This document shows positions 528 through 6,085 of a DNA stretch of 6,085 nucleotides, piece by piece; position 1 is the first letter of the stretch; each line of letters opens with the position of its first letter. The DNA is from a phage. The translations under genes were made by a program, and so were the position numbers. The notes beneath the pieces were generated by a model, which worked only from the letters and a program-made list of their open reading frames with translations, was not told where the DNA came from and made no database searches. The stretch lies in sequence record PX907427.1. One strand, 5' to 3'.

Positions 528-700
528 AATATTTTAGTTTGGTAGATGAACATTATGCTTACTGCCCTGATACAAGGATTTTGCACATTACTCGTAGTCG
601 TGTTTCTGACCCTCGGTATGAGCGTCGTTTTCTTACTGATGAGGAACATTTTGCACTTTTGGATTGGTTGAAAAATCGTCCAACTTACATTAATTCTTGA
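524..700 (+). CDS. Hypothetical protein (ORF3), 58 aa, GTG start: MKYFSLVDEHYAYCPDTRILHITRSRVSDPRYERRFLTDEEHFALLDWLKNRPTYINS
   Basis: GTG 524 preceded by GGAGG (514-518) with a 5-nt spacer; GTGA start/stop overlap with ORF2; T-biased third codon positions; absent from the supplied ORF track (below its length cutoff or because of the GTG start). Confidence 0.4.
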   Translation: MKYFSLVDEHYAYCPDTRILHITRSRVSDPRYERRFLTDEEHFALLDWLKNRPTYINS

Positions 701-726
701 CAGACCTTTAAAATACCCTCTATATT
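697..726 (+). promoter_or_regulatory. Candidate sigma70 promoter for gene A (pA-like): -35 TTGACA (697-702), 18-nt spacer, -10 TATATT (721-726)
   Basis: Perfect -35 hexamer and 5/6 match to the -10 consensus with 18-bp spacing, about 33 nt upstream of the A start codon; phiX174 has its pA promoter in the equivalent position (established knowledge). Confidence 0.4.
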
Positions 727-755
727 GCCCTCATAGTTTCACTACGAGGGCTTTT
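727..755 (+). promoter_or_regulatory. Hairpin plus T-run immediately upstream of the gene A ATG; terminator-like and/or SD-sequestering 5'-UTR structure
   Basis: gccctc (727-732) pairs with gagggc (746-751), inner tagt/acta pairs (734-737 with 741-744), then tttt (752-755). The only SD-like motif for gene A (GAGGG, 746-750) is in the 3' arm of the stem. Confidence 0.3.
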
Positions 756-758
756 CGC

Positions 759-2243
759 ATGGCTACTGAAATCTTCTCTGATGTTGTTAAGTCTGTTTGG
801 TCGCACGCTACGGCTAAGCATGCTCATCTTCGCATGGCTGTTCAGGTTGATAATCGTAGCCGCCTCCTTTCTGACCTCGTTTATCAGTTGGAAAAACGCC
901 TTTCTGAAGAGACTCATTTGGATGATGAGACTCTTTCCGTCTATGAATCTCAGACTGCCCTTCTGGAAGACCATATGGCACTGGTTCGGAAGTGTGCTGC
1001 CCAACTTGATAATAGTAACACTATAGACCACCGTACCCCTTTGGATGCCGAATGTGTTTTTCTGTTTGAGATGATTTGCCCTGGTGTTCGCTACGGTAAA
1101 ACATTGAATTCTCTTTGGACTAAGTATGTCGCCCAGTGGCCTGAGAAGTTGATTCGTCAGGAGTTAGACATGGTTAAGCCTTTATCCTTTAAGGATGAGG
1201 TTGCTAAGTACATGGAGAAGATGCAGGAAAAAACACGCAAGAATCGCATGACTCAGAAAGTGATTAATGAGATGCGTATTGCTCACCAAAAAGGCTGGTT
1301 CTTCGTATTTGATACGTTGACACTTGCCGATGACCGTTTGCAGGCTTTTAATGAAAACCCCAATGCTCTCCGTGATTATTTTAGGACTGTTGGTCGAGCT
1401 GTTCTGCGCGCTGAAGGTCGTTCGGTTAAGGATTCCTACAATGACTGCTATCGCTATCTTTGTGTGCCGGAGTTTGGAGGTCAGCACGGCCGTCTTCATT
1501 GGCACGTTGTGCATATGGTGCGGACTCTTCCTTTGGGAAGTCATGACCCTAATTTCGGTCGCAAGGTACGTAATTATCGCCAGATTAACTCGTTCCGTGG
1601 CATGTGGCCTTATGGCTTCACGCAACCGATAGCTGTTCGCTATCAACATGACGCTTATTCTCGTAAAGGTTGGTTATGGCCTGTTGACAAAACAGGAAAA
1701 GCAATGCAGAGTAAGCCGTATCAGGCGGTCGCATGGTATGTGACCAAGTATGTAGCTAAGCAATCTGACCAGCGTCAGAAAGCTATTACCGAGAGACAAA
1801 AGAAATGCAAGAATCCATTAATGGCAATCTGTCTGAAGAAAGAGTTTCGGGTACGCAGCAGTCGGAAGCTCGGAATGGAGCTCCCGTCAATGGCTCACCT
1901 GAGCAACAAGGTACTTCTGGAACTGAGCCGAATCAGCTTCGATTCCAGTCCTCTGTATCAGATAGTGAAAGAGAACGCCAAAAAGCAATTGACCTTGAAC
2001 ATCGGCGCGCTGCCTTTGCACGTCATTTTGGATGTGCGCCCGGAAGTGAGAAGCATGTTGAAAACTATTCGTCGTTTGATGAAAAAGACACCCGAGTTCA
2101 ATTGGCAGAGTTCTATCGCTTCAATGACGGTCACTTTAAAAAATGGGGATATTTCTGATGAAGCACGTCAATACATTATTGATGCAGGAATTACGCCTAC
2201 TGATTTGCGAGCTAAAGCGACTCAGACTTTCGGCGGTAAGTGA
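759..2243 (+). CDS. A: Replication initiation protein A (HUH rolling-circle endonuclease), 494 aa
   Basis: Long blocks match my recollection of phiX174 protein A (WFFVFDTLTLADDRLQAFNENPNALRDYFR, PVDKTGKA, C-terminal GITPTDLRAKATQTFGGK). HUH motif H-W-H at 1497-1505; paired catalytic tyrosines in YVTKYV at 1737-1739 and 1749-1751. The gene contains the viral-strand origin. Confidence 0.95.
   Translation: MATEIFSDVVKSVWSHATAKHAHLRMAVQVDNRSRLLSDLVYQLEKRLSEETHLDDETLSVYESQTALLEDHMALVRKCAAQLDNSNTIDHRTPLDAECVFLFEMICPGVRYGKTLNSLWTKYVAQWPEKLIRQELDMVKPLSFKDEVAKYMEKMQEKTRKNRMTQKVINEMRIAHQKGWFFVFDTLTLADDRLQAFNENPNALRDYFRTVGRAVLRAEGRSVKDSYNDCYRYLCVPEFGGQHGRLHWHVVHMVRTLPLGSHDPNFGRKVRNYRQINSFRGMWPYGFTQPIAVRYQHDAYSRKGWLWPVDKTGKAMQSKPYQAVAWYVTKYVAKQSDQRQKAITERQKKCKNPLMAICLKKEFRVRSSRKLGMELPSMAHLSNKVLLELSRISFDSSPLYQIVKENAKKQLTLNIGALPLHVILDVRPEVRSMLKTIRRLMKKTPEFNWQSSIASMTVTLKNGDISDEARQYIIDAGITPTDLRAKATQTFGGK
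1002..1031 (+). other. Viral (+) strand origin of rolling-circle replication, 30-nt A-protein recognition/nick sequence CAACTTGATAATAGTAACACTATAGACCAC
   Basis: 28/30 identical to the phiX174 origin 30-mer CAACTTGATATTAATAACACTATAGACCAC as I recall it; expected nick between G1008 and A1009; located inside gene A as in phiX174. Confidence 0.9.
1221..2243 (+). CDS. A*: Protein A* (internal in-frame restart within gene A), 340 aa if ATG 1221 is used; ATG 1212 is an alternative
   Basis: In-frame ATGs at 1212 and 1221 sit where phiX174 A* starts (MKSRRG... in phiX, MQEKTRKNRM... here). GGAG at 1214-1217 is too close to ATG 1221 and GAGG 1197-1200 is 11 nt from ATG 1212, so the start is uncertain. 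Confidence 0.45.
   Translation: MQEKTRKNRMTQKVINEMRIAHQKGWFFVFDTLTLADDRLQAFNENPNALRDYFRTVGRAVLRAEGRSVKDSYNDCYRYLCVPEFGGQHGRLHWHVVHMVRTLPLGSHDPNFGRKVRNYRQINSFRGMWPYGFTQPIAVRYQHDAYSRKGWLWPVDKTGKAMQSKPYQAVAWYVTKYVAKQSDQRQKAITERQKKCKNPLMAICLKKEFRVRSSRKLGMELPSMAHLSNKVLLELSRISFDSSPLYQIVKENAKKQLTLNIGALPLHVILDVRPEVRSMLKTIRRLMKKTPEFNWQSSIASMTVTLKNGDISDEARQYIIDAGITPTDLRAKATQTFGGK
1805..2158 (+). CDS. B: Internal scaffolding protein B, 117 aa, encoded in an alternate frame inside gene A
   Basis: C-terminal region matches phiX174 B from memory (ERERQKAIDLE, AEFYRF, terminal GYF); position inside A as in phiX174. Confidence 0.9.
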   Translation: MQESINGNLSEERVSGTQQSEARNGAPVNGSPEQQGTSGTEPNQLRFQSSVSDSERERQKAIDLEHRRAAFARHFGCAPGSEKHVENYSSFDEKDTRVQLAEFYRFNDGHFKKWGYF

Positions 2244-3033: not shown

Positions 3034-3057
3034 ATGGGCCTTCGGGCCCTTTAAGGA
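3034..3057 (+). terminator. J-F intergenic hairpin module (GGGCC-TTCG-GGCCC) followed by TTT and the F SD; candidate weak terminator or mRNA-stabilising stem-loop
   Basis: Perfect 5-bp GC stem (3036-3040 with 3045-3049) around a TTCG loop; the 24-nt module atgggccttcgggccctttaagga is repeated exactly at 4364-4387. Confidence 0.5.
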
Positions 3058-3064
3058 AAATTAA

Positions 3065-4360
3065 ATGTCTAATGTGCAAACCTCCGCAGAACGTGAAATT
3101 GTCGATCTCTCCCATCTTGCTTTTGACTGTGGCATGATTGGTCGTTTGAAAACCGTTTCTTGGACCCCTGTTATTGCTGGTGACTCTTTTGAGATGGATG
3201 CCGTTGGTGTACTTCGTCTTTCTCCGCTTCGTCGCGGTCTGGCGATTGACTCTAAGGTTGATTTCTTCACCTTCTATATTCCGCATCGTCACGTTTATGG
3301 TGACCAGTGGATTCAGTTTATGCGTGATGGTATTGATGCAAGTCCTCTGCCTTCTGTTACTTGTAGCCGTTACCCTGACCATGCTGGTTATGTAGGTACT
3401 ATTGTTCCTACGAATAGCCGTATTCCGAAGTTCTTACATCAGAGCTATCTGAATATTTACAATAACTATTTCCGTGCTCCGTGGATGCCTGAGCGCACTG
3501 AGCAGAACCCTTCCAATCTTAATGAGGATGATGCTCGTTATGGCTTCCGTTGCTGCCATCTTAAAAACATTTGGTCTGCCCCTCTGCCTCCAGAGACTAA
3601 ACTGGTTGAGCAAATGGGTATTAAAAGCAATTCCATTGATATTATGGGCCTACAAGCCGCTTATGCGCAGCTTCACACTGAGCAAGAGCGTACTTACTTT
3701 ATGCAGCGTTACCGTGATGTTATCTCCAGCTTTGGCGGTTCAACCTCTTATGATGCCGATAACCGACCGTTGCTTGTTATGCACACCGACTTCTGGGCTT
3801 CCGGTTACGACGTTGATGGTACTGACCAATCTTCCCTTGGACAGTTCTCTGGTCGAGTCCAGCAGACGTTTAAACACTCAGTGCCGCGATTCTTCGTGCC
3901 TGAGCATGGTGTCATGATGACTTTGGCTCTGATTCGCTTCCCGCCTATCAGTCCGTTGGAGCACCATTATCTTGTTGGTAAGTCTCAGTTAACCTATACC
4001 GACCTTGCTGGCGACCCGGCCCTGATTGGTAACTTGCCTCCTCGCGAGATTAGTTATCATGACCTGTTCCGTGATGGTCGTTCTGGCATTAAGATTAAAG
4101 TTGCTGAGTCTATTTGGTATCGTACTCATCCTGACTACGTTAACTTTAAGTATTATGATTTGCAGGGATTCCCATTCCTTGATGATGCGCCTGGTACGTC
4201 TACTGGTGATAATCTTCAGGAGGCTATTCTTGTTCGTCATCAGGACTATGATGCTTGTTTCCAGTCTCAGCAGTTGTCACAGTGGAATAAACAGGCTCGC
4301 TATAACGTTAGTGTTTATCGCCATATGCCTACTGTTCGCGATTCCATTATGACCTCTTAA
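3065..4360 (+). CDS. F: Major capsid protein F, 431 aa
   Basis: Strong match to phiX174 F from memory ([28 protein letters not shown]...FTFY.PHRHVYG). AAGGA (3053-3057) lies 7 nt upstream of ATG 3065. Confidence 0.97.
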
Positions 4361-4363
4361 TTT

Positions 4364-4387
4364 ATGGGCCTTCGGGCCCTTTAAGGA
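4364..4387 (+). terminator. F-G intergenic hairpin module, second exact copy of the 24-nt GGGCC-TTCG-GGCCC element
   Basis: Stem 4366-4370 pairs with 4375-4379, loop TTCG; identical to 3034-3057; followed by the G SD AAGGA (4383-4387) and ATG 4395. Confidence 0.5.
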
Positions 4388-4958: not shown

Positions 4959-5041
4959 AAGGCCGCCGCACTCCCGGTTATATGCCTGCCCAGTGTAGGG
5001 CGGACCGAGCCGTACGGAGATACCCGATAAACTAGGAACGT

Positions 5042-5068
5042 GGAAGGCGTTAGCCGCCTTCCCTCCTG
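5042..5068 (+). other. Candidate complementary (-) strand origin element: perfect 8-bp hairpin followed by CTG, of the primase-dependent G4 type
   Basis: ggaaggcg (5042-5049) pairs with cgccttcc (5055-5062), loop ttagc; CTG at 5066-5068 lies 3 nt 3' of the stem. Sits in the only sizeable non-coding spacer apart from H-A (G-H, 4959-5092). Confidence 0.35.
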
Positions 5069-5092
5069 CTAAGCCCAAAAGGAGTTACAGCG

Positions 5093-6085
5093 ATGTTAGG
5101 TGCTGTTGTTGGTGGTATTGCCTCAGCCTTAGCTGGTGGTGCCGCTTCAAAATTATTCGGAGGCTCTCAGCGTGGAGTTTCTGTTATGCAGCAAGGTGCC
5201 GAGTCTGCCGGATTGACTAACGGTGGCGGTGCCATTTCTATGGATAATGACCAAGGTATTCAGTCTGCTATTCAAGGCTCGAATGTTCCTCCTGCTGGTC
5301 AGCTTCCTGAGTCTCAGAATTCTGGTGTTATGGCTGATGCTGGTAATATGCTTCGCAATGCTGGAAAGTCCTTGCTTGACGGAACTATTCAGGCTGGCTC
5401 TGATAAAGTTAAACAAGCCCTTATTGATAAGTTGATTGGAGGTAATGATGCCAAAGATCGAGGAAAAGCCACCCGTGATTACTTGGCTGCGGCCTTCCCT
5501 GAGCTCAACCCATGGGAACGTGCTGGAGCTGGTGCTTCCACTGCCGGGTTAGAGTCCTCTGCTCAGAATCAGCAGAAAGAGATGTTGAAGATGCAATTGG
5601 ATAATCAGAAAGATATTGCAAAAATGCAGATGGATAATAATTTGCAGATTGCTGGTATTCAGTCTGCCACCTCTCGTCAAAATACAAAGGATTCTGTTTA
5701 TGCCCAGAATGAGATGCTTCAGTATAATCAACGTGAGTCGCAGGCACGCGTTGCGTCTATCCTCGCCAACACTGACCTTACGACTAAACAAGCCACCCAT
5801 GAAATTATGAGGATGGCCCTTACCCGCGCTCAGGAGACTGGTCAGCATTTGACTAACTCTCAGATTATGGCTTTGGAGAAAAAGGTTTATGCAGAAATTG
5901 GCAAAATTCATCAAGATACTCAAAATTCTCGCTATGGTAGCTCTCAAGTTACTGCCGCAGCGAAAGACGTTACGAATATGATTACTGATGCCTCTTCAGG
6001 CCTTGCTGATTGGGCTTCTCAGCAGTGGAATTCGTTCTTTAAGGATGGCAAGTCCAACGGTATTTCTTTTAATACTAGAAAATAA
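5093..6085 (+). CDS. H: Minor spike / DNA pilot protein H, 330 aa
   Basis: N-terminal glycine-rich hydrophobic segment GGIASALAGGA.SKLFGG and central block KDTRDYLAAAFPELN.WERAGA...IAGIQSATSRQNTKD.VYAQNEML match phiX174 H from memory. AAGGAG (5079-5084) lies 8 nt upstream of ATG 5093. Stop TAA is the last 3 nt of the window. Confidence 0.95.
   Translation: MLGAVVGGIASALAGGAASKLFGGSQRGVSVMQQGAESAGLTNGGGAISMDNDQGIQSAIQGSNVPPAGQLPESQNSGVMADAGNMLRNAGKSLLDGTIQAGSDKVKQALIDKLIGGNDAKDRGKATRDYLAAAFPELNPWERAGAGASTAGLESSAQNQQKEMLKMQLDNQKDIAKMQMDNNLQIAGIQSATSRQNTKDSVYAQNEMLQYNQRESQARVASILANTDLTTKQATHEIMRMALTRAQETGQHLTNSQIMALEKKVYAEIGKIHQDTQNSRYGSSQVTAAAKDVTNMITDASSGLADWASQQWNSFFKDGKSNGISFNTRK

Follow-up and report, generated by a model that had tools for sequence, protein, structure and literature searches.

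Results

Three conserved ORFs lie between genes H and A

The window, by which we mean the whole 6085-base stretch analyzed here (GC content 45.31%), is a complete alpha3-type microvirus genome that is 95% identical to alpha3 and aligns with it end to end. Its genes follow the order A, B, K, C, D, E, J, F, G, and H, with H ending at position 6085 and the coordinates common with those of alpha3. Gene A (759–2243, plus strand), which encodes the replication initiator, was taken from the ORF list and has the coordinates of gene A of alpha3 X60322. Between genes G and H is a GC-rich spacer of 134 nt (4959–5092) that contains several hairpins, such as GGAAGGCG/CGCCTTCC at 5042–5062. It is presumably in this spacer that alpha3, St-1, and phiK have their primase-dependent origin for the complementary strand. 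The sequence belongs to phage vB_SEC_3 (PX907427; PMC13029530), described as 6085 nt in length with 45.3% GC and with 94.99% and 95.06% identity to two alpha3 records; the annotation in that paper consists of the canonical genes only. For comparative analyses, we used 20 non-redundant alpha3-clade genomes drawn from GenBank, IMG/VR, and metagenomes, to which scans of the metagenomes and IMG/VR contributed seven new alpha3-like genomes and no more.

The interval between H and A measures 758 nt and contains three conserved ORFs, all on the plus strand. ORF1 (66–434) encodes 122 amino acids and, in its N-terminal half, has entropies of 0.15, 0.04, and 0.66 at codon positions 1, 2, and 3. ORF2 (438–527) encodes a conserved, hydrophobic peptide of 29 amino acids, METVIGKFIALAVVALMLYGISRLIRRFP, in which codon position 2 is almost invariant, and its stop codon overlaps the start codon of ORF3. 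ORF3 (524–700), which encodes 58 amino acids, begins with GTG after the sequence GGAGG (513–517), has entropies of 0.15, 0.09, and 0.46, and ends inside the -35 hexamer described below. Judged by these entropies, the substitution patterns of ORF1 and ORF3 are of the coding type. In tblastn searches of the phage collection, ORF1 and ORF3 were found only in 27 alpha3-group records. The three ORFs are unannotated in most records, are listed as hypothetical proteins in Lilleven, and gave no match in Pfam or PHROG.

ORF1 is intact in 18 of the 20 sequences and in the re-sequenced alpha3 (DQ085810.2). Single-base gaps break it in the 1992 record of alpha3, X60322 (L002, ~193), and in St-1 (L009, ~230); since it is intact in DQ085810.2, a sequencing error probably accounts for the frameshift in X60322. 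In its C-terminal half, ORF1 occurs as several divergent types, a pattern that looks like recombination.

Directly after the gene H stop codon, and preceding ORF1, is a compact plus-strand module (1–68; hereafter module 1) consisting of TTGACA at 4–9, a 13-bp hairpin at 27–60, a T-run at 61–65 (5–6 T), and the ATG at 66. The ORF1 Shine-Dalgarno sequence is inside the 3′ arm of the hairpin, which our terminator scan lists as terminator-like. TTGAC is invariant in the 20 genomes. Across the clade, 94% of the stem is paired and double compensatory changes are absent, and the T-run is interrupted in many relatives. We considered and rejected a promoter in module 1, as it has a perfect TTGACA but no usable -10 hexamer at 15–19 nt, leaving the hairpin only. 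An Rfam E-value search of the whole window returned no family.

A candidate promoter directly precedes gene A

A second element, at 697–758 on the coding strand, lies directly upstream of the gene A ATG (759). Its first part, TTGACA-N18-TATATT (697–726), is the only 11/12 match to the sigma-70 consensus on either strand of the window in our promoter scan, the next best site scoring 9/12; the initial annotation was thus right to single it out as the best match in the window. Promoter-like scores of this kind do arise by chance, as a site of at least 11/12 appeared somewhere, on either strand, in 10.8% of 1000 dinucleotide-preserving shuffles of the genome. The same shuffles yield an expectation of only ~0.0008 such sites per given 80-nt stretch of one strand. 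It is therefore the position of the match, more than the score alone, that marks it as non-random.

Conservation follows the pattern expected of a promoter. Within the -35 hexamer TTGACA (697–702), which contains the TGA stop codon of ORF3 (698–700), all but one of the 6 positions are invariant across 19 alpha3-clade genomes, and the invariant positions include T697, C701, and A702, although these are free of the ORF3 stop-codon constraint. The -10 hexamer TATATT (721–726) is likewise invariant at 5 of 6 positions, with TATAGT in ID32. The intervening spacer (703–720) is 18 nt long in all 19 genomes that carry the module, and only 3 of its 18 positions are invariant; fixed length combined with drifting sequence is the footprint expected of a promoter spacer. 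A spacer of 18 nt is suboptimal for sigma-70, and the TG of an extended -10 element is absent from the gene A promoter. An alternative pairing of hexamers, CTTACA-N19-TAAAAT (684–714, 9/12), was rejected because TAAAAT falls in the variable spacer.

In phiK (L010, ~696–740; window 697–735), TTGGCA replaces TTGACA, resulting in a weaker -35 hexamer. The same change removes the ORF3 stop codon, making ORF3 12 codons longer and extending it into the hairpin described below.

A hairpin containing the gene A Shine-Dalgarno sequence abuts the -10 hexamer

We documented the anatomy of the remainder of the element together with its conservation, covariation, and folding energy. Immediately after the -10 hexamer is a plus-strand hairpin, GCCCTCATAGT/ACTACGAGGGC (727–751), with a GC-rich outer stem of 6 bp, an A·C mismatch, an inner stem of 4 bp, and the loop TTC. 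The 5′ arm GCCCTC (727–732), which precedes the inferred transcription start, doubles as the promoter discriminator and follows the -10 hexamer without a gap, an arrangement also seen for GCCTCC in phiX174 and G4. The gene A Shine-Dalgarno sequence GAGGG (746–750) is inside the 3′ arm and ends 8 nt before the ATG. A run of four T residues (752–755) completes the element, with the tail TTTTCGC leading into the ATG at 759. On rechecking, the positions and sequences previously assigned to promoter, hairpin, GAGGG, TTTT, and ATG were all correct.

The hairpin folds with a predicted energy of -14.2 kcal/mol (z = -3.5; none of 200 shuffles was as stable) and is the fifth longest inverted repeat of the window. 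In 18 of the 19 module-bearing alpha3-clade genomes, no base separates the -10 hexamer from the 5′ arm; the remaining one (L034) has one extra T. Substitutions in the 5′ arm are confined to changes of C to T opposite G, which keep G·U pairs. The 3′ arm GAGGGC is invariant in all 19 genomes, a conservation that could reflect Shine-Dalgarno function alone; the T-run (4–6 residues) and the ATG are also kept, and the loop is the most variable part of the module. When the 19 distinct stem sequences are aligned, 92% of cells are paired. One pair changes from UA to AU in 6 sequences, and the A·C mismatch is replaced by an A-U pair in 7 sequences and by a G-C pair in St-1. The covariation score of the hairpin was reached by none of 500 shuffles, although it probably stems from few independent events, the 6 UA-to-AU sequences being close relatives.

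Could the promoter match be fortuitous, or could the inverted repeat act in single-stranded viral DNA, for example during replication or packaging? Sites of this score are found in a minority of shuffled genomes, as noted above, and because the viral strand has the sense of the mRNA, a DNA hairpin is compatible with the sequence. However, the position-specific expectation for the promoter is very low, the layout is conserved across three genera (see below), and the C-to-T changes in the 5′ arm give G·U pairs, which are tolerated in RNA. The known origins are elsewhere, inside gene A or in the F-G or G-H spacers, and we know of no replication role for the site at 697–758. We consider an explanation by chance or by DNA structure extremely improbable.

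The layout is shared with phiX174 and the G4 clade

The module layout is found upstream of gene A in 19 of the 20 alpha3-clade genomes, at five G4-clade loci that represent four distinct sequences, and in phiX174. In the H-A spacer of phiX174, the pA-TH element (3927–3980) reads TTGACA-N17-TTTCAT-GCCTCC-AAATC-TTGGAGGC-TTTTTT-ATG. Common to this element and that of the window are TTGACA, a -10 hexamer abutting a GC-rich 5′ arm of 6 nt, a gene A Shine-Dalgarno sequence in the 3′ arm, a T-run, and the ATG. The initial annotation had likened the placement of the promoter to that of phiX174 pA, a comparison that held up and could be broadened, since the -10 hexamer abuts the 5′ arm in phiX174 and in G4-like and alpha3-clade genomes.

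The phiX174 element also provides a probable start site. In the RefSeq record (NC_001422), the start is annotated at position 3962; this base is the first A past the 5′ arm GCCTCC. Transferred by position, it corresponds to A733 of the window (plus strand), the seventh base past the -10 hexamer, in agreement with the previous proposal of a start near 733. We take the classical 5′ end of the phiX174 A message made in vitro to be pppAAAUCUUGG, which agrees with a start at 3962.

The two elements differ in the quality of their parts. The phiX174 element, a clear terminator, combines a weak -10 hexamer (TTTCAT) and a spacer of 17 nt with T6 and a stem of 8 bp that is perfectly paired; in the element of the window, the promoter is near consensus, the spacer measures 18 nt, the stem contains a mismatch, and the T-run is T4. 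Our promoter scan gives phiX174 pA no score, as opposed to 11/12 for the window. The balance seems to be shifted toward the promoter in the alpha3 group and toward the terminator in phiX174. For phiX174, Logel and Jaschke described overlapping promoter and terminator, with the end of the promoter followed immediately by the terminator stem, and found a net 0.29-fold change in transcription across pA-TH, with TH blocking about 70%. Zhao et al. reported that phiX174 pA transcripts are scarce and unstable and that the TH hairpin is the most stable of the four terminators.

In G4, the corresponding sequence is TTGACT-N18-TAATAT-GCCTCC-CATCAAAC-GGAGGC-TTTTC-ATG. Three further distinct G4-clade sequences have the same order, and L036 is identical to G4 over the element. 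Within this clade, the -35 hexamer is TTGACT or TTGACA, the spacer is 18 nt at 4 of 5 loci and 15 nt in L037, and the -10 hexamer abuts GCCTCC; on the 3′ side are the loop, GGAGGC, 3–4 T residues, and the ATG 1–5 nt downstream. The arms are GCCTCC/GGAGGC, as opposed to GCCCTC/GAGGGC in the window, and G4 is without the inner stem. Among the elements compared with window positions 697–764 by simple alignment, that of G4 is the most similar (z about 5). The phiX174 and G4 elements directly follow gene H, whereas that of the window comes after ORF3 and is separated from H by ~700 nt.

The part of the window closest to phiX174 pA-TH is module 1, which gives z of about 6 in the simple alignment, compared with 3.5 for the gene A module. 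These similarities weakly suggest that an ancestral pA-TH element was duplicated around the ORF cassette.

Transcripts that start at 733 are predicted to have an open ribosome-binding site

If transcription starts near 733, the position taken from phiX174, the complement of the gene A ribosome site is upstream of the element's own start. To express the consequence in energetic terms, we calculated the opening cost, defined as the ensemble energy required to open positions -14 to +3 around the gene A start codon. For RNAs beginning at 659, 699, or 727, the cost is 14.6–16.0 kcal/mol; for RNA beginning at 733, it is 5.7–5.8 kcal/mol, a computed difference of about 9 kcal/mol between read-through RNA and RNA of the 733 start. 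By the same calculation, phiX174 gives 11.5–13.9 kcal/mol with the 5′ arm and 2.4–3.5 without it, and G4 gives 8.4–13.7 with the arm and 3.7–7.3 without. Pair probabilities of the Shine-Dalgarno sequence on short RNAs were dropped as a measure, since they were dominated by weak long-range pairings and depended on the chosen 3′ end.

The initial annotation held that a start at 733 would leave GAGGG free. The predicted fall in opening cost, from ~15 to ~5.7 kcal/mol, bears out most of this claim, with the qualification that weak alternative pairings involving the GGG of the Shine-Dalgarno sequence are still predicted in the 733-start RNA. It also spoke in general terms of transcripts reading through from upstream; more precisely, such transcripts would carry ORF1–3 and would first pass a second hairpin, the one after gene H.

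Termination at the hairpin is probably weak in this genome

Hairpin 727–751 has the GC-rich stem and 3-nt loop of an intrinsic terminator, with one A·C mismatch, and lacks a U-tract of at least about 5–6 residues. The run of four T residues is the shortest seen and is shared with NC3 and L021, the other relatives having 5–6. A d'Aubenton-Carafa-type score, which we calculated with modern energy parameters and which is good for ranking only, is -8.8 for the window, +1.8 to +16.5 for relatives with T5-6, and +27.6 for phiX174 TH. Our simple terminator scan, which lists phiX174 TH, lists the hairpin neither here nor in WA13, which has T6; because of the A·C mismatch in the stem, it is missed even with the longer run. 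Given the short T-run, termination at this hairpin is probably weak in this genome. An earlier proposal that read-through RNA would form the hairpin plus TTTT and terminate is accordingly upheld as to the fold and weakened as to the strength of the terminator.

Two further hairpins in the genome are informative. The J-F and F-G junctions contain an identical block of 24 nt, ATGGGCCTTCGGGCCCTTTAAGGA, at 3034–3057 and 4364–4387, after genes J and F, respectively. Each block forms a GGGCC/GGCCC hairpin with a TTCG loop, followed by TTT and then by the AAGGA of the next gene, just outside the stem. These blocks are presumably the equivalents of TJ and TF. That the Shine-Dalgarno sequence is outside the stem at these junctions and inside it for gene A in three genera supports a role for occlusion.

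One alternative is that the hairpin is mainly a terminator and 3′-end stabilizer equivalent to TH, that the overlap with the promoter allows the element's own transcripts to escape, and that burial of the Shine-Dalgarno sequence is incidental. Termination at TH, which overlaps pA, has been measured in phiX174, and the terminators of that phage also stabilize upstream mRNA. Most relatives of the window have T5-6 and positive scores, and escape from termination would explain equally well why the -10 hexamer abuts the 5′ arm. However, the tail and score of the window itself do not favor this explanation, nor does the separate T-tailed hairpin already present just after H. The position of the next gene's Shine-Dalgarno sequence, which distinguishes the gene A hairpin from the other terminators, and the computed difference of about 9 kcal/mol in opening of the ribosome site also argue for more than an incidental role. 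We therefore regard a purely terminator-based explanation as unlikely.

One natural isolate has lost both the promoter and the 5′ arm

NC35 (L014, DQ079872.1; ~696–705) is the viable natural isolate without the module. A single deletion of 29 nt, corresponding to window positions 704–732, took away the spacer and the -10 hexamer together with the 5′ arm, and a promoter search between H and A of NC35 for a replacement found only 8/12 matches. Because NC35 is viable despite having neither -10 hexamer nor 5′ arm, the phage can do without the element. The joint loss of promoter and occluding arm, although a single case, fits the view that the hairpin gates translation of gene A, as read-through RNA in NC35 would be translatable.

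It is also possible to envision that the promoter is minor, that A is made mostly from read-through RNA, and that the hairpin is a constitutive brake on its translation. The viability of NC35, which has no recognizable promoter between H and A, could be read in this way, as could the fall in transcription across pA-TH and the scarcity and instability of pA transcripts in phiX174. Yet 19 of 20 genomes keep the hexamers and their exact 18-nt spacing despite drift in the spacer sequence, and some of the conserved -35 positions are free of constraint from the ORF3 stop codon. In NC35, the 5′ arm is missing too and hence there is no brake, and the phiX174 start site is annotated in its RefSeq record. 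A constitutive brake with a minor promoter is, in our judgment, quite improbable.

Discussion

The element upstream of gene A is real, conserved, and ordinary for this phage family, and it extends the known phiX174 pA-TH arrangement to the alpha3 group. Its novelty is low, since the arrangement is that of pA-TH. Based on its sequence and predicted folding, we consider it likely that positions 697–758 are the alpha3-clade ortholog of pA-TH, in which the gene A promoter is fused with a Shine-Dalgarno-hiding hairpin that acts as a gate. The start site, which we infer from phiX174, is plausible, as are termination at the hairpin and differential translation of A.

How would such a gate operate? 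Host sigma-70 RNA polymerase would start at approximately A733, just past the 5′ arm. Because the resulting RNA would be missing GCCCTC, it could not form the hairpin, and would thus neither terminate itself nor close its ribosome-binding site. RNA arriving from upstream, carrying H and ORF1–3, would contain both arms; the hairpin would then fold, causing partial termination (weak here) and burying the gene A ribosome site. The net effect would be to shield production of A protein from the intense late transcription that circles the genome.

A comparable logic is found in insertion sequences. In the fold-back inhibition of IS10, reportedly described by Davis, Simons and Kleckner in 1985, an upstream segment is said to pair with the ribosome-binding site so that translation is restricted to transcripts of the element's own promoter. 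IS200 has a terminator and an RBS-occluding stem-loop as two stem-loops (PMC3196728). The element of the window would share the logic of insulation with IS10 and IS200 and has no sequence or evolutionary relationship to either. It also differs in that a single hairpin would be both terminator and occluder and in that the protected gene is a phage replication initiator.

The presence of two related modules in the H-A interval raises the question of how they arose. A tentative scenario, which we think possible and somewhat doubtful, is that pA-TH was duplicated around ORF1–3, that the upstream copy lost its -10 hexamer while retaining hairpin and Shine-Dalgarno sequence, and that the downstream copy acquired a strong promoter and a weakened terminator and works as a promoter-choice gate, a gate that would stand open in NC35. 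If this is true, only RNAs starting at A733 would make the replication initiator, and RNAs that read through ORF1–3 would be silent for A.

For the alpha3 group, the gain in annotation consists of a probable promoter and start site for gene A, along with three conserved genes absent from most records. When microvirus genomes are re-engineered or generated, changing the position of the -10 hexamer with respect to the stem should disrupt expression of gene A.

A protein, which introduces a nick at the origin and prefers its own DNA, is required at low levels and harmful in excess. Keeping A scarce in a tiny circular genome, on which late transcription proceeds around the full circle, is therefore a real problem of design. 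The element upstream of gene A may represent a compact answer, outlined earlier for phiX174, in which one stretch of 62 nt would serve as promoter, terminator-like hairpin, and translational operator.
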